64,000 bases of DNA from Myxococcota bacterium (GCA_049969675.1 JBMFOP010000001.1:22546-86545), one strand, 5' to 3'. Shown: positions 12,105 to 56,050, numbered from the stretch's first letter. The notes: a model not told the origin generated them from the letters alone. Numbers and translations: made by a program.

Positions 12105-13352
12105 ATGCAGAGGCTTATAAAATGCAGAGGTTCAAAAGGAATGGCAATGCTCATGGTTGTAACCATTATTGCCATTCTTGCCACAATGGCTATGGACTTC
12201 TCCTATGAGGCTATGATAAATCTGCAGCTTACCTCTACTTATAGAGACGAGGTGAAGGCGTACTTCCTTGCACACTCGGCGCTGAATATCTCCCGACTGG
12301 TAATATTTTATCAGAAGCAGCTGGATTCTATGTTGAAGAGTAATAACCTTGCACAGGTGTTAGGTGGTAATATCCAGCTCTTCAGGCTTATCCCTATTGA
12401 TAGCGAATTTACAAAGTCCTTTGCCAGTGGTGAACTCTTCTCATCGCTGGGCTTTCAGGAGATTAAGGAGGAGAGACCTACCCCTATGAAGGATGTTGAG
12501 AAAGATGAGGGAGAGGGGCGGGCATTTGCAGGGAAATTTGGGGATTTTGAAGGATATTTCAAAGCCAGTATAGAGGATGAAGAGTCAAAGATATCTGTAA
12601 GAAACTTTGATGCCACCCCGTCTCTTAGAAATTTTGCTATGACACAACTTATGCTTTTAATGCTACCGCAGCAGTACAATCCAATCTTTGAAAATAGGGA
12701 TATGGACAATCAATATACAACCCGTGAGGATATAGTGGTGGCACTCAAGGACTATCAGGACATAGATGATAAACAGTTTGACCTCCTCACACAGCAGGAC
12801 ATCGGCCCACCTGAGGATCTATTCTACTCGGCACTTGAAAGGCCATATCAGACAAAGAATGCGCCATTTGATTCTCTTGAGGAGTTAAGGATGGTAAGAG
12901 GTGTGGGAGAGGTCTTCTTTCATAACTTTGCAGATAGGCTTACCATCTATCCCATAAAGAAATTCAACCTCGCAAGCCTTGACGACAGGATGATTTTGAA
13001 CATAATCTGTATGTTTATTAAGGACAGGAATCACCCCATCTGCACAGACCCAACATATACATCTCAACAGAACCTCCTCAGGCGGTTTCAGGAATATAAG
13101 GAGATGAAGATGAGTCAGAACCCGCTATTTGTGGTATCTGTTCAGGATATAAAGGAATTCTGTAACCTTGAGGGGATTATCCTCCATGATGCAATACTTG
13201 GTGTAGGTAAGATGGAGGAGCTGCTCACAATGGAGAGTTCATATTTCAGGATTGAGACCATAGGAGTTGTAGGTAGTGTAAAGAAACGAATTACCGCAGT
13301 AGTATATGCAGATAAATCCAGATCAGAACTTTTGTATTACAGAGAGGATTGA
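12105..13352 (+). CDS. gspK: minor pseudopilin GspK-like
   Basis: Start MQRLIKCRGSKG then MAMLMVVTIIAILATMAM. The prepilin-like helix lacks E+5, as is typical for GspK. GAGGT RBS at 12097-12101. About 416 aa with a large periplasmic domain. Confidence 0.55.
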   Translation: MQRLIKCRGSKGMAMLMVVTIIAILATMAMDFSYEAMINLQLTSTYRDEVKAYFLAHSALNISRLVIFYQKQLDSMLKSNNLAQVLGGNIQLFRLIPIDSEFTKSFASGELFSSLGFQEIKEERPTPMKDVEKDEGEGRAFAGKFGDFEGYFKASIEDEESKISVRNFDATPSLRNFAMTQLMLLMLPQQYNPIFENRDMDNQYTTREDIVVALKDYQDIDDKQFDLLTQQDIGPPEDLFYSALERPYQTKNAPFDSLEELRMVRGVGEVFFHNFADRLTIYPIKKFNLASLDDRMILNIICMFIKDRNHPICTDPTYTSQQNLLRRFQEYKEMKMSQNPLFVVSVQDIKEFCNLEGIILHDAILGVGKMEELLTMESSYFRIETIGVVGSVKKRITAVVYADKSRSELLYYRED

Positions 13353-13354
13353 TT

Positions 13355-14767
13355 ATGCCAAAGAGATACATTTCGGTGAGATTCGGGAATGAATCTTATT
13401 ACGCCCTGATAGGGGAGGAGGTAAAGGGTGGTATAAGGATTTTAGAGAAGAGGTCTATAAAGGTAAATCAGGAGAATCTCTCTGAGAATGGATTTGATAG
13501 AGATGCCTTAAAGACACTGTTTCTCAATGCAGATATTTCAGAGCACATCATAGTCATCCCTTATTATGATGTATATACAGGGATTGTAGAATTTCCACTT
13601 ACAGACCGCAAGAAGATTGAGAACGCACTCTCTTATGAACTTGAAAATGAGACGATGGAGAGCCCTGAGGATCTTATTTCAGACTACAGAATTATTAACA
13701 ATGCAGATGGGAAGACGCAGGTAGCATATTTTGCATCCAGAAAAGAGAACATAAGGAGATTACTTGCTGAGCTCTCAATGATAGGAGTTGACCCAGCCAA
13801 TCTGGTGGCTTATCAGAATCTCTATTCAGGATTTTACAGATATATATTTGATAAGAATTCAGATAGGGCAGTAAAGTCAATTCTGGACTTTTCGGATAAT
13901 ATATTGAGTCTATCCTTTCTTGATTCAGATGGATTTGTCTTCGGGAGGGCATTAAAAGTTGTAGATATAAATGAAGACCTATCTGTTGTAAAGAACTTCA
14001 TCACCACTACCATTCAATATTACAGGATGCGTGCACATAGAGAAGTTGTAAGTACATATATTGTTGCAAAGGAGGAAGAATTTGAATTCTTCTATAACCT
14101 TTTGAGCTCAGAGATAGGACTCAGCACGGTCTCAAAACTGATTGTCAAAGATTCAGATTCAAACGATATTGAGGCCGAATTTGTGATGCCTTATTCCTCA
14201 GTTGTGGCGAGGTCCGAACTCACCAGGAGACAACTCATCAACTTCAGAAAAGACGAGTTTGTCTATAGAGGAGAGTTTGAGTTCTTAAAGAGACAACTAA
14301 TAAAATATGGTATTGCCGTGGTGATTATCGTCCTGCTTGCAATTTCACTTACAATCTACAAATTAAGGGCGCTCTCAAAGTATGATGAGTTATTAAATAA
14401 CTCACTATCTGAGGTCACCAAACAGATATTGGGGAAGCCTTATGACAACTTTACAACCGCACTCGCCGTCATTAAGAGCAAGACCGAACCGAAGAATCTC
14501 TCAATACCTAAGACATCGGCATTTGACTATTTTATGTATTTCTCAGATGCCTTTCCGACGGAGGTTGATGTAAATATCCGAACACTTGAGATAGGTGATA
14601 AGAAGATTCGTATGGAGGGAGAGACTGATTCATTTGAATCAGTGGATAGGGTAGTAAATGCATTAAAGAAGAATAGTTGCTTTAAGGATATAACAAAAGG
14701 GAAGGTCAAGAAATCACCGGATGGGAAGAGGATTGACTTTGACCTTGCAATAACTCCCTCCTGTTGA
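13355..14767 (+). CDS. gspL: GspL-like inner membrane protein (cytoplasmic domain, single TM, periplasmic domain)
   Basis: Positional call: it follows gspK. Single TM YGIAVVIIVLLAISLTIYKL at about residue 320, matching GspL topology. Sequence-level similarity was not verified. Start ATG 13355 (TTG 13349 also possible). Confidence 0.45.
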   Translation: MPKRYISVRFGNESYYALIGEEVKGGIRILEKRSIKVNQENLSENGFDRDALKTLFLNADISEHIIVIPYYDVYTGIVEFPLTDRKKIENALSYELENETMESPEDLISDYRIINNADGKTQVAYFASRKENIRRLLAELSMIGVDPANLVAYQNLYSGFYRYIFDKNSDRAVKSILDFSDNILSLSFLDSDGFVFGRALKVVDINEDLSVVKNFITTTIQYYRMRAHREVVSTYIVAKEEEFEFFYNLLSSEIGLSTVSKLIVKDSDSNDIEAEFVMPYSSVVARSELTRRQLINFRKDEFVYRGEFEFLKRQLIKYGIAVVIIVLLAISLTIYKLRALSKYDELLNNSLSEVTKQILGKPYDNFTTALAVIKSKTEPKNLSIPKTSAFDYFMYFSDAFPTEVDVNIRTLEIGDKKIRMEGETDSFESVDRVVNALKKNSCFKDITKGKVKKSPDGKRIDFDLAITPSC

Positions 14768-14775
14768 GGTGTAAT

Positions 14776-15348
14776 ATGAATAAGAGAGTGGCACAATTGA
14801 GAGATTCACTCAGCATATGGTATAACTCCCTATCAGGCAAGGAGAAGACATTTGTTGTAATATTCTCATCATCACTCTTTGCTGTGATGGTGGCATTTAT
14901 AATAATTTTCATATCTTCTACAATAAATAGTCGATATACGGAGATAGAGGAGAAGGAGAAGAAGTTGAGGGAGATTATAGAAAATAAAGATAAATACAGA
15001 GAGGCAGAGCAGGCACAGAAGGTATTTGAACAGAGGCTGAAGGGAAATAATGTGAATCTATTCTCTTTTGTTGAGGAGATATCCAGAAGACTTCAGATAG
15101 ATATATCCGATATGAATGAGAGGGAGAGTCCGGTCCAGAAGGGAGATAAGATAAAAGAGCAGACGCTGGAATTGAATATCTCAAAGATCCCGATGGACAG
15201 GCTTGTGGATTTTATGAAGGAGATTGAGAAGGGGCAGTATCTGGTAAAGATAAAGAAGCTCAAGATAAATACGAGATATGAGAAGGAGAATAGGACTCTC
15301 AATGTAAATATGATTGTAGCCACATATAAGTCAGTAACCAGGGAATGA
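14776..15348 (+). CDS. gspM: GspM-like bitopic membrane protein
   Basis: About 190 aa. N-terminal TM FVVIFSSSLFAVMVAFIIIFI plus coiled coil. Positional, after gspL. GAGGTG RBS before ATG 14776. Confidence 0.45.
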   Translation: MNKRVAQLRDSLSIWYNSLSGKEKTFVVIFSSSLFAVMVAFIIIFISSTINSRYTEIEEKEKKLREIIENKDKYREAEQAQKVFEQRLKGNNVNLFSFVEEISRRLQIDISDMNERESPVQKGDKIKEQTLELNISKIPMDRLVDFMKEIEKGQYLVKIKKLKINTRYEKENRTLNVNMIVATYKSVTRE

Positions 15349-15354
15349 TATATT

Positions 15355-16236
15355 ATGAAGATAAAGAATATTCTTATTTATGCAGGTTATGTTCTGGCAT
15401 TCTTTATAAGCCTTTATATTTTTGTCTATCTTACACTTCCAGATGAGAGGATAGCGAAGTTCTTTGTTGATAGATATACTGCCATTTATGGTGTGAATAT
15501 AACCTACAGGAGTGCAGGGATTACTCCTTCTATGAATATCCTCTTAAAGGAGGTAGAACTTATGATAACGGATATCCCGCAGAAGATAAAGCTTGATAGA
15601 GTAGAGGCTGGAATCTCCTTATCTGGTTATCTCTTTGGTACAAAGCCACTTATTTTAAAGGCAGAAATCTCGGGCGGAAGTATCAGGATAAATGCGGGTG
15701 CGAAGAAGGAGAAGATATATTTATCGCTCAATGTCTCAGATTTAGATATTATGAAAGTGGATTTTATAAAAGATAAGACGGGACTTAATATAAAGGGTCA
15801 ACTGAATCTCCAGCTGGATATTAAATATGATCAGAAAGAATCAAAGAATAACAGTGGGAGTATATCAATTGAGATAAAGGGTTCAGAGATAAAAGGTGGA
15901 AAGGTTATGGGTTTTGAGATCCCATCTGTAAATACAGGAGATATTAAAGGAGAGATAGATATAAAAGAGGGGAAATTTAAGGTATCAAACTTTAAATCAA
16001 AGGGGAAAGATGTGGAGTTGAGGCTCTCGGGTGAAGGTGGATTCCTATCGCCGCCATCCAGAGGGAATCTCAATCTCTCACTAAGGGTCAGGCCATCACA
16101 GGGATTTATTGATAGAGAGGAGAAGCTCAAGACGGTCCTCTTCGGGATCGGTAGTTCACTTGATAAGGAAGGCTTTTACAACTTCTCAATTAAAGGTACC
16201 CTCTCAAATCCAGCATTTAATATAGAGAAGAAATGA
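15355..16236 (+). CDS. gspN: GspN-like protein (putative)
   Basis: 293 aa with N-terminal TM YAGYVLAFFISLYIFVYL. Last gene of the block, positional. Lys/Gly-rich low-complexity periplasmic part. Confidence 0.35.
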   Translation: MKIKNILIYAGYVLAFFISLYIFVYLTLPDERIAKFFVDRYTAIYGVNITYRSAGITPSMNILLKEVELMITDIPQKIKLDRVEAGISLSGYLFGTKPLILKAEISGGSIRINAGAKKEKIYLSLNVSDLDIMKVDFIKDKTGLNIKGQLNLQLDIKYDQKESKNNSGSISIEIKGSEIKGGKVMGFEIPSVNTGDIKGEIDIKEGKFKVSNFKSKGKDVELRLSGEGGFLSPPSRGNLNLSLRVRPSQGFIDREEKLKTVLFGIGSSLDKEGFYNFSIKGTLSNPAFNIEKK

Positions 16237-16260
16237 CACAGACCATAATTGATAAATAAT

Positions 16261-16564
16261 CACATCTGTCCAAAATAATTTTTTCATTGAAGCCATAAGA
16301 TATTTAATCTTTAAGAGGGGCTTTATATGAATATGGATTGCAGCAGTTTTTGACAAATCCTACAGATAGACCCTTTAAGACCCCACCAATTGTGCCTGAT
16401 GTAGGGAAACCAACATTGAAGGTTACAAAAGTTGGACAGCATTTAGAAGAAATTATATTGAAGAAAAGTGGGCAACCCGATCTTTAAAATGTGAATTTAT
16501 CCATACAAACCCCTTATTTTACAAATAGTTAAATTCTCAAAGGAGATTGTTTTGGACAGCAGTG
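16261..16564. mobile_element. MITE-like repeat, short (internally deleted) copy
   Basis: Ends CACATCTGTCCAAAATAA (16261-16278) and TTTTGGACAGCAGTG (16550-16564) form imperfect terminal inverted repeats. The arm is about 75% identical over about 135 bp to the arm of the 55291-56050 copy, in opposite orientation. Confidence 0.6.
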
Positions 16565-17241
16565 ATATTTAACGACTATTTTTCCCAACTTTATAACAAA
16601 AGTTATCAACTGCAAATAGAGAGAAACCTTTTGAGTAAATATAGTATTCTGGATGTGCTAATAAACATAAGTGGGAAGTTTTTAATCCACTTAATAGCGC
16701 CTGAAATAGCCAGACAAACGAGGAGATTAATAGAAAAAACAGACCATCATATTACTTAAAAATTGGGAAGTTAGGGCTTAAATTTTTCCTCTATTGCTCT
16801 GGTCTATAAAGTGTTATACAGGGCTCTCTAGAGGGATTCAGATATAATTTTATAAGCTTTTAATATGGCATAAGGTAGATTACAACAACCACAGACTTAT
16901 AAAAGTCTATTATGATAATGATATTGGCAATGATGAAATCGCGGACGATTATATAGAATCTATCTATAAATCACTGAGAGATGCAAGGTATATGAACAGG
17001 TGCTTATAGAAGATGGATATGTGCAAAAGATTTAGATGATTTTTTGTAGATACTGCCAATGAAATTAACAAACTTTTGGATTTCTTAATCGTAACTTCTT
17101 TAAGGCTTACATTAAAATTTGTGCATATGTGTCAAAATGGATATATTAAAATGTCTGGATAAAAGTGAGTAAATGTCTGTTTTTTTACTTTACTTTATTG
17201 TTTTGTTTTTTTATTTATCAGAGAGTTGTAAGGGAGTTTTT

Positions 17242-18459
17242 ATGTTTATCTCATCTTTTGGAATGACAGATGTAGGGCGGAAGCGTCCTCACAATGAAGA
17301 TAATTTTTTTGTGGATAATGATAATAAGATTTATATAGTTTGTGATGGTATGGGCGGGGCAAATGCCGGGGAGGTCGCATCCAGAATGGCGGTTGATATA
17401 ATAAGTGCAAGGATGAGGGAACGGATTGATGAGATAAGGGAGTTGAGCTCAGAGAATACATTTGATTCAAAACAGAAGATAAAGACAATTATAAGTGATG
17501 CTGTATCCGAGGCGAGTCTTAAGATATTTGAGATTGCATCAAGAGAGGAGAGTAAGAAGGGGATGGGGACGACCCTGGTGATGCTGATAATCTGTGGAGA
17601 GAACGCATTTGTTTCAAATGTAGGAGATAGCAGGGCATATCTGATAAGGGATAATCAGGTCTATCAGATAACCGAAGACCATACTCTTGTTCAGGAGCAG
17701 CTCAAGAGGGGACTTATTACACCCGAGGAGGCAAAGAATGTAACTTATGGGAATGTAATTACGCGGGCGGTGGGTGTTATGGAATCAGTTATGGTGGATA
17801 CTACCCACATAGAACTGATGGCAGGTGATATATTCCTCCTCTGCACAGATGGCCTGCACGGATATACAGAGGATAAGGATGTGCTATCATTTATAACCTG
17901 CTCTACCCTTGAAGAGATGGCGAACTGTGCAATAGAATTTGCAAACAGAAGTGGGGGTAAAGATAATATCACAGCGATATTTGTAAGGGTCTCCACAGAG
18001 CTCAAGACCGAGGTCCCGGCATCAGATAAGATTAATCTCCTCAAGTCAGTAAGACTGTTCAAATACTGCTCATATCAGGAGATTATGAAGGTCCTATCAG
18101 TTGCAACGATAGAGACATTTGAAAAGGATGAGATTATACTTATGGAGAATGAGCCCGGGGAGGAATTTTATATCATCCTATCTGGAGAGGTGCTGGTTAA
18201 AAGCAACAGTAAGCCAATCGCTACATTGGGAGTAGGGAAGCACTTTGGAGAGATGTCTCTTATTGACCTTGCACCGAGGTCAGCCTCTGTAGTCACCACT
18301 CAGCCCTCCAAATTAATCAAGATCAAGAGAAAGGACTTTGTAGCCCTCATTAAGGAGGATACACATCTGGGTATCAAGTTGTTGTGGTCATTCTTGCAGG
18401 ACCTTTCGGATAGGTTGAGGATTACAAATATTGAATTGATAAAACACCTGAGTCAGTGA
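17242..18459 (+). CDS. PP2C-family Ser/Thr phosphatase fused to a C-terminal cyclic-nucleotide-binding domain
   Basis: N-terminus has PP2C motifs: FGMTDVGRKRPHNEDNF, IVCDGMGGANAGEVAS, LCTDGLHGY, GGKDNITAIFV. The C-terminus is CAP-family cNMP-binding: GEEFYIILSGEVLV...FGEMSLIDLAPRSASVVT. Confidence 0.75.
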   Translation: MFISSFGMTDVGRKRPHNEDNFFVDNDNKIYIVCDGMGGANAGEVASRMAVDIISARMRERIDEIRELSSENTFDSKQKIKTIISDAVSEASLKIFEIASREESKKGMGTTLVMLIICGENAFVSNVGDSRAYLIRDNQVYQITEDHTLVQEQLKRGLITPEEAKNVTYGNVITRAVGVMESVMVDTTHIELMAGDIFLLCTDGLHGYTEDKDVLSFITCSTLEEMANCAIEFANRSGGKDNITAIFVRVSTELKTEVPASDKINLLKSVRLFKYCSYQEIMKVLSVATIETFEKDEIILMENEPGEEFYIILSGEVLVKSNSKPIATLGVGKHFGEMSLIDLAPRSASVVTTQPSKLIKIKRKDFVALIKEDTHLGIKLLWSFLQDLSDRLRITNIELIKHLSQ

Positions 18460-18590
18460 GGAGAATGGATTGATTTTACTCTATCAATTGTGTGAAATAT
18501 AATTGTTATATTTTGCGAGACAGAAGATCGATTTTTATATTTATTTGCAACTTTTTGAGCAGTGATTAATCTAAATAGATTGGAGGAGAT

Positions 18591-19004
18591 ATGGCATTTA
18601 AGGTCACATGGAAAAAAGATATGTTATTTGAAGGGGAGAGTCCAGAAGGGCATAAGGTAATGATGGATACCTCAAAGGAGCATGGAGGGAGTGATTCAGC
18701 CGCTGCTCCGATGCAACTTGTTCTACTTGCACTTGGCGGTTGCACAGGTATGGATGTAATAGCAATCTTAAGAAAGATGAAGAATATCCCCGAGGAATTT
18801 TATATGGAGATTGAATCTGAGAGGGCACCTGAGCACCCGAAGGTTTATAAGAAGACCAATATAAAATATGTCTTTGTTGGGGATTTGAAAGAGGAGAATG
18901 TAAAGAAGGCTATTGAATTATCTCAGACCAAATACTGCTCGGTCTCTGCTATTTTGAGAGGAGTTGGTGAAGTAAATTATAGTTACGAAATAAAGAGGAG
19001 GTAG
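18591..19004 (+). CDS. OsmC/Ohr family peroxiredoxin-like protein
   Basis: 137 aa. OsmC-like signature AAPMQLVLLALGGCTGMDVIAIL...KYCSVS, with the two conserved Cys. Confidence 0.7.
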   Translation: MAFKVTWKKDMLFEGESPEGHKVMMDTSKEHGGSDSAAAPMQLVLLALGGCTGMDVIAILRKMKNIPEEFYMEIESERAPEHPKVYKKTNIKYVFVGDLKEENVKKAIELSQTKYCSVSAILRGVGEVNYSYEIKRR

Positions 19005-19008
19005 GCAG

Positions 19009-19974
19009 ATGGAGTTTCATCTTTCGGGGACGAAGAATAAAAGTGTATCTAATGATATTAAAAATCTTATTATCTTAGGTGGTGGTCCTGCAGGTCTTAC
19101 AGCAGCCATTTATGCAGCAAGGGCTATGCTAAGCCCTCTATTGATTGAATCCGGTGTGATGGGGGGGCAGGCAGCGATTACTGATATTCTTGAAAATTAT
19201 CCCGGTTTTCCAGAGGGTATAAACGGTGCGAGGCTCACCTCATTATTTGAGGCTCAGGCAAAGAAGTTTGGCACCGAAATTATTATGGATGATATTGGTA
19301 AGATAGAGGTAGTAGATGATATTATCTTGCTTAAAGGGTATAATACAGAATATCGAACAAAGGCTCTAATTATAGCAACTGGTGCCTCTTATAAGAGACT
19401 CGGTGTAAAGGGGGAAGAGGAGTTTATTGGCAGAGGTATATCATTCTGTGCAACCTGTGATGGCGCATTTTTCAAAGATGCAAAGATAGCGGTTGTAGGT
19501 GGTGGTGATTCAGCAGTAAAGGAGGCGATATTTTTAACCCGATTTGCAAGCGAGGTCTATATAATTCATAGGAGAGATGAACTCAGGGCTGAAAAGATTA
19601 TTCAGCAACAGGCATTTTCAAATCCCAAGATAAAGTTCAAATGGAGTACTGTTGTGGAGGAGTTTTTAGGGGATGAATCTGGGATAAAAAAACTGAGATT
19701 GAAAGAGCTCAAGAGCGGGAATATCTATGAAGAGGAGTTTGAAGGTGCATTCATCTTTATTGGTCATAGACCCAATACAGAGTTATTCAAGGGCATTGTT
19801 GATATGGATGAGAATGGCTTTATTATTACAGATGAGAATATGAAGACATCACAAAAGGGTATATTCGCGGCCGGAGATGTGAGGAAGAAGGGTTTGAGAC
19901 AGGTAATTACTGCTGCCGCAGATGGTGCCATCGCTGCCTTTATGGCTGAGGACTATCTGAGCCATTCTAAATAA
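19009..19974 (+). CDS. trxB: thioredoxin-disulfide reductase
   Basis: FAD site GGGPAGLTAAIYAARA, redox-active CATCDG, and the NADPH site VVGGGDSAVKEA. Confidence 0.85.
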   Translation: MEFHLSGTKNKSVSNDIKNLIILGGGPAGLTAAIYAARAMLSPLLIESGVMGGQAAITDILENYPGFPEGINGARLTSLFEAQAKKFGTEIIMDDIGKIEVVDDIILLKGYNTEYRTKALIIATGASYKRLGVKGEEEFIGRGISFCATCDGAFFKDAKIAVVGGGDSAVKEAIFLTRFASEVYIIHRRDELRAEKIIQQQAFSNPKIKFKWSTVVEEFLGDESGIKKLRLKELKSGNIYEEEFEGAFIFIGHRPNTELFKGIVDMDENGFIITDENMKTSQKGIFAAGDVRKKGLRQVITAAADGAIAAFMAEDYLSHSK

Positions 19975-20038
19975 GAGATGGAGATATTGTGGTAAAATTT
20001 TTATAACCAGACATCCGCCGTACGGAATAATCTGTAAA

Positions 20039-20120
20039 AGATATCTGTCCAGAATAAGTCTTTAGTAAAAGGCTTTTGCAGATGTAAAATTATTCATATC
20101 TATATGGAGTTGAATCACAA
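20039..20120. mobile_element. solo end / fragment of the same MITE-like repeat family
   Basis: AGATATCTGTCCAGAATAAG at 20039-20058 matches the atct-type TIR. The following about 60 bp share the ...tatatgga.ttgaat... block with the other two copies. No opposite end was found. Confidence 0.4.
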
Positions 20121-20968
20121 AAGCCAGAATCTTCAATACAGTCTTGATATTCATAAAAATACTCCTTTCTGTCCCTGAGCCTGCCCTCAGGAACCTGATT
20201 TGATTCTGGCTGGCAGGAGCCTGTTTCTTTACTTACCCTGTAACTTAAATGCCATGGCTGATGCAATCAATGGTCCAGATACAGCCCCAGATAGTAAAGA
20301 AGTAACTACAGAATAGGCAGCAAAACTCCCTGGTACTCAAGACTGCAATGTCGTTTCTCCCTATCATATAAGTTTATCAGTTGTTTCATAATGCTGTGCG
20401 CAATTATGGGGCACCACCAAATTTTTGAATATAAAAATTTTATGGGAAGGCTTTTTCATAAATGGGATAAGAGAGGGAAATAATCTGGCAGGGACTATTC
20501 TGTTTCAATATCAATTCTTTCATAGTATTTCCCATCATTGCTGTTCTCTCTCTTCTCTTTTTGTGTTATGCTCTCTTCCTCTGGAATTGAATCTTCAATA
20601 TAGAGTGGTAATTGGATTTCCCTACGCCTTTCTCTTCTTTTTTCCTTCTTCAATTTTTCAATAATGAAGGCGTCTAACATAAATCTCACCACCTTTCAAA
20701 TTACCAGTATGCATCCCTTGTGCCAGAAAATAATGCATAAATATCAATATGTTAGGCTTGAGCCCCCTTAAACTTTGTGACAATATTGTCATATTTACGA
20801 ATTCTTGCATAGCCTGATAAATATATGTTTGAGCAAGGCAATTGACAACTTTGTCAGAAATTTAAAATAAGTATAAAATAAATTCCTTATTTTTATAAAT
20901 ATTGTATTCTGACTGTGGTGTATGTGGGATTTTTCTTTAACATCTTATACTATGGAGAGAATGTGATT

Positions 20969-55258: not shown

Positions 55259-55290
55259 ATATAAATATTTTTTATTTTTTTACTTTTACT

Positions 55291-56050
55291 CACTGCTGTC
55301 CAGAATAATCTGTTTAACAAGTTTACTATTTGTAAAATAAGGTATTTTGTACAGGTAAATCCATATTTTCGAATCGGATTTCACCCTTTTCTTCCATACA
55401 CTATCTAATAAAATGCTGTCCAACTTAAATAACCCTAATGTTAGTTGCTCTACATCAGACACAACAGGACTGTCTGCCGTCGCACAGACAGGTAAAGTCT
55501 CATAATGTTTATTTGTTCATTCACATAAATTTTTGTATAGTAATTCTTATTTGAAAGCCCGACAAAGTTAAAATCAAGCCAATAATCACTTTTTTATATG
55601 TCCATTTGAATGACTTTGCTTTGTGTTCATCGTTGTATTTAATGACCTTCCCCATATTTTCAATGAATATCTCTTCATTCAACTCAATTCTCTTGCCTTT
55701 CTGCTTATAGAAATTTTCTACTTTCTATAATAAATATTTTTTCATTAAAGCAGCATATGGTCTTAAACACTTTTTTCACTATAATATTTTTAACACGCCC
55801 CGGTGGTGACTTTTTTCTAATGGAGTAAATAGATAATCCATAAACATTGCTACAAATTGCTCCCAACAATTAAATCTATTTGCCCCATTATCAACCCTTG
55901 TCTCTCTTACCGCCTTATAAAACATATTTATAATCAATATTTGTAGAATTTATTAAAAATTAAATCAATTCATATTCATATAAATCCTTAACTCTTCAAA
56001 ATTCAATATCTAAAAGGTCTAAAGTTAAAATTTATTCTGGACAGATATGT
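55291..56050. mobile_element. MITE-like non-autonomous element, long copy (about 760 bp) with about 18-bp imperfect TIRs
   Basis: Left end CACTGCTGTCCAGAATAA (55291-55308). Right end TTATTCTGGACAGATATG (56033-56050), perfect over the 13-bp core CTGTCCAGAATAA. The interior is AT-rich and non-coding, with an internal AAATGCTGTCCAACTT sub-repeat at 55404. Homologous to the 16261-16564 copy. Confidence 0.65.

Follow-up and report, generated by a model that had tools for sequence, protein, structure and literature searches.

A probable IS4-family shell of 304 bp, lacking its transposase gene, between gspN and a PP2C gene in an uncultured Myxococcota genome

Introduction

The DNA analysed here, a stretch of 64,000 nucleotides from a Myxococcota bacterium (hereafter the window), contains two short elements with inverted ends, and the smaller of them lies almost directly after a type II secretion system (T2SS) operon. 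Element B occupies window positions 16261-16564 (304 bp) between two imperfect terminal inverted repeats (TIRs), and element A occupies 55291-56049 (759 bp), beginning with CACTGCTGTCCAGAATAA and ending with TTATTCTGGACAGATATG. A preliminary description made from the sequence of the window had regarded B as an internally deleted copy of A. This raises the question of what kind of element B is, from which parent it was derived, and whether it reached its present site as a short unit or was reduced to its present size after insertion.

Terminal repeats and flanks of element B

The termini of B are CACATCTGTCCAAAATAA (16261-16278) and TTTTGGACAGCAGTG (16550-16564), and its TIRs pair at 17/21 positions, those of A pairing at 16/21 (both counted from the sequence). 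The right-end TIR (IRR type), CACATCTGTCCAAAATAATTT, spans 16261..16281 on the plus strand and has the CACATCTGTCCAAAATA.. end found in the intact loci L016 and L020 and in the short loci L042, L049, and L112. The left-end TIR (IRL type), CACTGCTGTCCAAAACAATCT, is read on the minus strand at 16544..16564 and, in a comparison of left ends, fits the pattern that retrieved >108 loci of the family, as described below. A 13-nt TIR core, CTGTCCARAAYAA, occurs five times in the 64-kb window with no more than one mismatch, against an expectation of 0.52, and none of 100 shuffles reached five; the five sites are the four ends of A and B and a solo end at 20045. Both ends of B start with 5'-CA and carry a T at position 9 (CACATCTGTCC... 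and CACTGCTGTCC...), a signature shared with intact elements, and its TIRs lie near the family consensus. All TIR coordinates and features given in the preliminary description were recovered, either exactly or to within a base or two. Being small (304 bp), TIR-bounded, and without any meaningful ORF, B has the structure of a MITE.

Immediately outside the TIRs, the 9-mers ATAAATAAT (16252..16260) and ATATTTAAC (16565-16573) are identical at 6/9 positions, forming a candidate decayed target-site duplication (TSD). Among random 9-mer pairs drawn from local intergenic sequence, the empirical P(>=6/9) was 0.022. The family norm is a duplication of 9 bp, and the match between the two flanks, as read from their sequences, is consistent with an old target duplication that has since decayed.

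Homology between elements A and B

A sensitive blastn search of A against the window returned two significant off-diagonal matches, both located in B on the opposite strand, plus one weak match. The left arm of A (55290-55464) aligns with B 16565-16390 on the minus strand at 78.1% identity over 178 columns (E 1.6e-32), and the right arm (55938-56049), likewise in minus orientation, aligns with B 16368-16261 with 73.2% identity across 112 columns (E 1.9e-14). The arm homology proposed earlier is thereby borne out and reaches inward past the limit of 16431 first given; it involves both arms and extends beyond the TIRs rather than being confined to the short TIR motif. The minus-strand matches place B in the same element lineage as A and in inverse orientation to it, as had been suggested, and the shared blocks ACTATTTGTAAAATAAGG, CTTTTCTTC, and AAATGCTGTCCAACTT are all visible in the alignment. 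In A as in B, the two occurrences of the motif GCTGTCCA begin at element positions 5 and 125; their spacing is indeed equal in the two elements, although the reported value of 113 is inexact, the distance being 120 nt from start to start and 112 nt between the motifs. The reading of B as an internal-deletion derivative that keeps both ends also holds, whereas the use of the 760-bp A as its full-length reference does not, since intact relatives measure 1374-1436 bp. A itself is not a complete element but a separate gutted derivative.

Intact relatives and family assignment

Intact transposases of the lineage were found through a left-end DNA pattern and not through the pseudo-protein of A, a search with which gave a spurious 118-aa ORF in a sister copy as its sole match. 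The left-end pattern, CAYTGCTGTCCARAAYRATCT, amounts to 38 bits by our own count, so that a handful of chance matches is expected, and was scanned over one genome per GTDB species. It retrieved >108 loci, and the matches listed come mostly from MAGs of Nitrospirota/Thermodesulfovibrionales, Desulfobacterota, Magnetococcales, and Kiritimatiellia; a narrower pattern scanned over metagenomes gave 46 loci. Many of the retrieved loci hold a complete element, 1374-1409 bp long, in which the left end has an inverted partner, the family ends being CACTGCTGTCCA / CACATCTGTCCA. In these intact elements, an open frame of 397-412 codons between stops (388-402 aa when counted from the start codon) runs from the right-type to the left-type end with the polarity of the transposase remnant in A. 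The closest intact relative among the loci fetched, L165 (BLAB01000001.1), is 1436 bp long, encodes a 402-aa transposase, and is 71-75% identical to the arms of A and 73% identical to the left arm of B. Taken together, the intact relatives (1374-1436 bp) have ends like those of B and were found mostly in Nitrospirota and Desulfobacterota among public MAGs and metagenomes. A tblastn search of the 64-kb window with the transposase detected no intact transposase gene of this family.

The L016 protein scores 279.9 bits on the NCBIfam model NF033592 (transpos_IS4_1, 'IS4 family transposase'; cut-off 115) and matches the Pfam domains DUF4372 (E 7e-24) and DDE_Tnp_1 (E 1e-27). In one group of IS4-family transposases, DUF4372 forms the N-terminal domain. 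The intact transposases show the Y(2)R(3)E(6)K signature as YKDRWQVEIFFKTIK. TSDs of 9 bp, perfect or one base off, flank 10/11 intact copies checked (L094 being counted with a corrected right end), and the A-type element at L004 likewise has a perfect TSD, AGTTATGTA. The nearest annotated ISs in a plasmid collection, ISAbe18 and ISGme2, are just 35-37% identical at the protein level, so the lineage is unnamed although its family is clear. The size, the CA------T ends, and the 9-bp repeat were compared with the IS4Sa row in Table 1 of De Palmenaer, Siguier and Mahillon (2008; PMC2266710), with direct target repeats of 8-10 bp as the IS4Sa feature into which the 9-bp TSDs of the family fall. 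Termini, size, YREK motif, and 9-bp repeat fit the IS4Sa-type subgroup, an assignment that follows a published table of ends and repeats and not a phylogeny. The intact relatives therefore resemble IS4Sa-type members of the IS4 family in size, 5'-CA and T9 ends, 9-bp repeats, Y(2)R(3)E(6)K signature, NF033592 match, and DUF4372 plus DDE_Tnp_1 architecture. B shares with this group the homology of both its arms to transposase-bearing members, but differs in having no transposase at all and in belonging to an unnamed lineage.

Structure of element B and loss of the transposase gene

When mapped on L016, B keeps positions 1-192 and about 1256-1385. The blastn blocks cover 1-192 and 1256-1314, at 66-77% identity over 199 and 60 bp (E 2e-15 and 2e-6). 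In addition, the left arm of B aligns with L165 at 72.9% over 181 bp (E 8e-27), and both arms also match L021. According to the blastn alignment with L016, the approximate deletion junction lies at 16369..16370, within the string CCTACAGATAGACCCTTTAAG, and corresponds to the loss of L016 positions ~193-1255, equivalent to transposase residues ~15-366. The missing segment thus amounts to ~1.06 kb and includes the whole DDE domain (Pfam limits 122-331 in the L016 transposase). The plus strand of B (16261..16564) is the sense strand of the lost transposase gene. Along this strand, the element consists of the right TIR, a leader, the relic start of the gene, the junction near 16369, relic C-terminal codons, the subterminal motif TTGGACAGCA, a 3' tail, and the left TIR, making B a 304-bp non-autonomous internal-deletion derivative whose arms are homologous to A and to intact ISs.

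Two short relics of the gene flank the junction. The start relic, an ATG followed by ~14 decayed codons, occupies 16327..16368 on the plus strand and reads MNMDCSSF*QILQI against MNKFSSIFGQILQI, as seen from the translation, the end alignment, and the L021 sequence; it matches positions 10-27 of the transposase HMM at the expected place, with a sub-threshold E of 0.56. The relic of the last ~20 transposase codons, DRPFKTPPIVPDVGKPTLK against DNPFETPPIVPSAEQL, was located by tblastn and translation at 16365..16421 on the plus strand and is colinear with residues 368-378 of the L020 transposase (82% over 11 aa, E 0.16). Taken singly, the relics are non-significant at the protein level (E 0.16-0.75), yet they occur in the expected order, and the identity of B rests on DNA homology and colinearity rather than on these protein-level matches. 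A DDE transposase with the YREK motif is not encoded by B, which retains just ~14 first and ~20 last decayed codons. Since the transposase is absent, B is a derivative of an IS and not itself an IS.

Proposed explanation for element B

B is very probably the empty shell of a ~1.4-kb IS4-family IS, with an IS4Sa-type fit, from which the transposase gene has been deleted. In this explanation, an internal deletion of ~1.06 kb would have removed residues ~15-366, including the entire DDE catalytic domain. On one side of the junction, the right inverted repeat would remain together with the 5' leader and ~14 initial codons; on the other, ~20 final codons, the 3' untranslated tail containing the subterminal repeat, and the left inverted repeat. 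With the transposase gene gone and just the ends, leader, and tail remaining, B encodes nothing and is incapable of moving by itself. Judging from the family to which it belongs, such a shell would move only if an intact copy elsewhere supplied transposase in trans.

Tn5 and Tn10 transpose by cut-and-paste via hairpins formed at the element ends. By analogy with these IS4-family transposons, the transposase supplied in trans would bind the two CAC...GTG ends and excise the element by cut-and-paste through hairpin intermediates, and insertion would then proceed with a 9-bp staggered cut. The present lineage shares with Tn5/IS50 and Tn10/IS10 the DDE/YREK transposase family, the 9-bp target duplication, and presumably the cut-and-paste mode, but it falls into another subgroup with other ends and has an extra subterminal left-end core ~120 nt inside the end. 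The ends of IS10 begin with CT and those of IS50 with CW (PMC2266710). At its present site, B has the appearance of an old, fixed, and probably inert relic.

Short derivatives in other genomes and the history of element B

Short derivatives of the same lineage occur in Nitrospirota and other MAGs. TSDs of 9 bp flank 10/13 of the short derivatives checked, including 9/9 of those between 205 and 308 bp, in which the duplications are perfect in most cases and near-perfect in the others. These nine comprise elements of 277 bp (L022, L039, and L095), 307-308 bp (L028 and L076), and 205-233 bp (L042, L049, L112, and L046). The presence of 9-bp duplications around shells of 205-308 bp shows that these were inserted as short units, with transposase necessarily coming from elsewhere. 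Three loci, two of which belong to a single MAG, contain the 277-bp type, which thus represents a genuine MITE family there. The junctions differ among B, L021 (~405 bp), L045 (~290 bp), and the 277-bp and 307-bp types; since the derivatives in other genomes all have different junctions, the gutting of this IS lineage is recurrent. The unnamed IS4-family lineage, present in Nitrospirota, Desulfobacterota, and other MAGs, is therefore a repeated source of MITE-like shells.

For B itself, the balance tips slightly towards a history in which a full-length IS was inserted at the site and then gutted in place, so that B never transposed as a short element. The junction of B is unique, no second copy of it being found in the window or among the ~160 fetched loci, and the surrounding locus is deletion-prone, as fragment D (described below) has been cut on both sides and a helicase gene has been reduced to ~200 bp. 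No direct evidence runs contrary to gutting in place, and on these data it is indistinguishable from transposition of a shell; both histories are compatible with the explanation of B as an IS4-family shell. It is rather unlikely that B belongs instead to an active MITE family with many copies in this genome, its 304 bp having been moved as one unit by an intact IS at another chromosomal site. Such a history would be in line with the mostly perfect 9-bp TSDs of same-family short derivatives in other genomes, with the three 277-bp copies, with the near-consensus TIRs of B, and with the fact that contigs of sister assemblies end inside B. However, the lack of another copy with the B junction in the window and the fetched loci argues against it, as does the decay of the B duplication to 6/9. 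The contig breaks, considered as a possible sign of multiple copies, are weakened as evidence because they are otherwise explicable: the two contigs of GCA_049971375.1 share an overlap of 36 nt within B and show allelic differences, and the ERZ3623746 contig that breaks inside B has a coverage of just 2.8x. B may not have moved at all in its short form.

MIC231 cassettes are non-autonomous, IS231-derived elements of the IS4 family. B resembles MITEs and such non-autonomous IS derivatives in being short and non-coding, in carrying the inverted repeats of its parent IS, and in needing a transposase in trans, and the 205-308-bp members of its family resemble them in carrying 9-bp TSDs. B differs in its decayed TSD and, unlike MICs, contains no passenger gene. 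B belongs to the ordinary mobile-DNA debris of this uncultured Myxococcota genome, as a MITE-like IS derivative of a kind that is well known.

A direct origin of B from A, through the loss of a further ~455 bp from A as the parent, is improbable. The regions retained in B are subsets of those in A (on L016, 1-192 and 1256-1314 in B against 1-225 and 1163-1306 in A), and the 120-nt spacing of the motif is common to both. However, the arms of A and B are just 73-78% identical, against a difference of ~10% across the middle between the A-type elements L002 and L004 of a sister MAG (an estimate from the alignment). Furthermore, B contains neither the non-transposase middle of A nor its 24-nt hairpin insertion, and in other genomes shells have arisen repeatedly with differing junctions. 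Given the low identity and the complete absence of the middle segment of A, B is better seen as an independent derivative, and on sequence grounds the two elements best fit separate derivatives of related 1.4-kb ISs.

It is very improbable that B, although located between the T2SS operon and the PP2C gene, intergenic, and conserved at ~97-99.8% in sister assemblies, functions as a structured non-coding RNA or as a regulatory element instead of being mobile DNA. Homology to transposase-bearing ISs accounts for its whole sequence, Rfam 15 assigned it to no family (best match E 0.27, 23.3 bits versus a 69-bit threshold), and its folding is no better than that of shuffles once TIR pairing is set aside (z -1.5). 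A scan of B detected no terminator-like sites, and promoter-like ones were as frequent as expected by chance.

The gap between gspN and the PP2C gene

B starts 24 bp past the stop codon (16236) of a 293-aa ORF that corresponds to GspN, the name given by NCBI to members of its 90%-identity cluster and also to a 62%-identical homologue. The earlier placement of B between the T2SS operon and a PP2C gene is correct, the gap between gspN and the PP2C/cNMP-binding gene at 17173 being 936 bp long. It is made up of 24 bp, B, a 74-bp gap, fragment D, a helicase stump, and ~185 bp upstream of PP2C. Fragment D (16639..16784, plus strand, 146 bp) is a left-arm piece of another IS copy of the L004 type, with 81.3% identity over 150 bp to L004 592-738 (E 8e-31); it follows B after 74 bp and is bounded by a TIR on neither side. 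For D, a degenerate left-end TIR at ~16815 was considered and ruled out, because the segment 16786-16987 belongs to a region of helicase homology, so D ends at 16784 without a TIR. This segment (16786..16987, plus strand) is the remnant of an HKD(PLD)-SNF2 helicase pseudogene covering residues ~33-99, with 63.5% identity over 203 bp to L118/L119 (E 5e-13) and 57% identity across residues 55-98 in tblastn (E 1e-9). In L118/L119, an intact 1123-aa helicase gene is located 130 bp after gspN and matches the PADLOC HKD+Snf2 and DrmD models. Insertion of ISs followed by deletion most likely reshaped the gap and probably destroyed the helicase gene, and the site beside the IS relics has apparently lost a candidate defence gene. 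What stands as a 936-bp 'spacer' behind the T2SS operon is thus IS debris (B and D) plus an HKD-SNF2 helicase stump, and not regulatory sequence.

The preliminary description had proposed comparing related genomes to see whether the insertion is strain-specific. In two further assemblies of the species, B occupies this very site, and the insertion is therefore not strain-specific among the assemblies compared: L166 covers window positions 12377-16505 at 99.1%, L003 covers 16470-20104 at 99.8%, and L114 ends 36 nt into B. B is absent from the more distant relatives found (GspN 64-69% identical). No precise empty site was found, as the relatives without B are too divergent (GspN 64-69%) and carry other genes downstream. 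In these relatives, gspN is followed by the helicase gene in L118/L119, by iPGM-SNase-HAD-PP2C in L117, and by a repeat-protein gene on the opposite strand in L115/L116. Synteny breaks at the 3' boundary of the T2SS operon, where the L115-L119 relatives show four different arrangements after gspN. The PP2C gene of L117 is the fourth gene after gspN, and iPGM, SNase, and HAD are absent from the corresponding part of the window (16237-17172). Exact-protein look-ups of the GspN, PP2C, and T2SS-M proteins of the window found nothing on record, and those of AsnRS, TrxR, and OsmC gave matches.

The solo TIR core at 20045 belongs to a right-end relic, C (20041..20161, plus strand), which contains the 13-nt core GATATCTGTCCAGAATAAG as an exact match and aligns weakly with the right arm of A (62.7% over 126 bp, E 4e-4). 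Outside the TIR core, no other locus is significantly similar to relic C. It lies just after a thioredoxin reductase gene and is conserved in the sister MAG L113, and the sister contig L003 ends inside it at 20104. The relics mark points of disagreement among assemblies of the species, and synteny or operon inference requires care at 16.2-17.2 kb, ~20.0 kb, and 55.3-56.05 kb. B leaves the knowledge of transposons unchanged, and its value lies mainly in annotation.

A subterminal copy of the left-end core

B contains a second copy of the left-end core, TGCTGTCCA, at 16433..16441 on the minus strand, 120 nt inside the terminal copy. A and B alike have the two copies at element positions 4 and 124, and the corresponding subterminal core in A is located at window positions 55414-55422. 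With no more than one mismatch, TGCTGTCCA occurs 90-129 nt inside the left end in 50/89 left ends of the family, compared with 1/89 shuffled ones. Reading of the L016 and L021 sequences places the subterminal core directly 3' of the transposase stop codon. The core has been kept across the IS lineage in several phyla, as well as in B, A, and many short derivatives. It is missing from the shortest derivatives aligned, L042, L049, and L112 (220-233 bp), whose TSDs are near-perfect or perfect. As these derivatives still have duplications, the subterminal core is evidently not required for mobilisation.

To our knowledge, a subterminal left-end core is not a described feature of Tn5 or Tn10. A tentative and somewhat doubtful proposal is that the conserved core represents a candidate functional site for transposase binding or regulation. 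In the same tentative spirit, and separately from the core, recombination between relics may rearrange the genome between strains, with hybrid A as an example, and IS activity may have destroyed the candidate HKD-SNF2 defence gene by gspN. If the proposal for the core is true, the subterminal site would fall outside the textbook Tn5/Tn10 view of IS4-family ends.

Element A as a hybrid remnant

Element A (55291..56049) is a 759-bp non-autonomous relative whose transposase remnant, recognised through DUF4372, tblastn, and HMM matches, lies on the minus strand, and in the present assembly it is a hybrid. Its decayed frame, ...FYKAVRETRVDNGANRFNCWEQFVAM..., matches Pfam DUF4372 at E 1.9e-5 (25.2 bits). 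Of the transposase, A keeps just residues ~11-54, located at 55949-55806 (tblastn E 1e-7; HMM E 3.9e-10), together with a few C-terminal codons. In its middle part (55465-55800, ~330 bp), no transposase homology was detected by tblastn or profile HMM, and this segment is possibly passenger or captured DNA. It is the part that differs by an estimated ~10% between the two A-type elements of the sister MAG, and in L004 gene callers place a 118-aa ORF (P0001) on it. Within the relic C-terminal codons of A, a 24-nt insertion relative to B (55470-55497) forms a small inverted repeat, ACTGTCTG...CAGACAG, and the intact transposase of L165 has extra residues at the same place.

The sister MAG GCA_964543015.1 has two separate A-type elements, L002 (7341-8150) and L004 (4821-5589). 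The L002 element comes after the AsnRS gene and is followed by a PEGA-domain gene; the L004 element adjoins a MopE-repeat gene and has MTHFR/FolD/FTHFS on its other side. A in the window matches the L002 element up to ~55625 and the L004 element from ~55600, and beyond this 26-bp overlap each of the two ceases to match well. These limits indicate that A is a hybrid with a crossover inside the identical 26-bp stretch at 55600-55625. The surroundings follow the same pattern, the order being AsnRS-element-MopE in the window and AsnRS-element-PEGA and MTHFR-element-MopE in the sister MAGs. From these sequences, hybrid A could be explained either by real recombination between copies, that is a rearrangement between strains, or by chimeric assembly. 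The AsnRS-side element of the sister MAGs has a solo left-type end of 44 bp (…ATTATTTTGGACAGCAGTG; L001 8128-8171 and L002 8133-8176) directly against its right end and is without a matching target duplication, and the two observations together suggest nested or recombined insertions.
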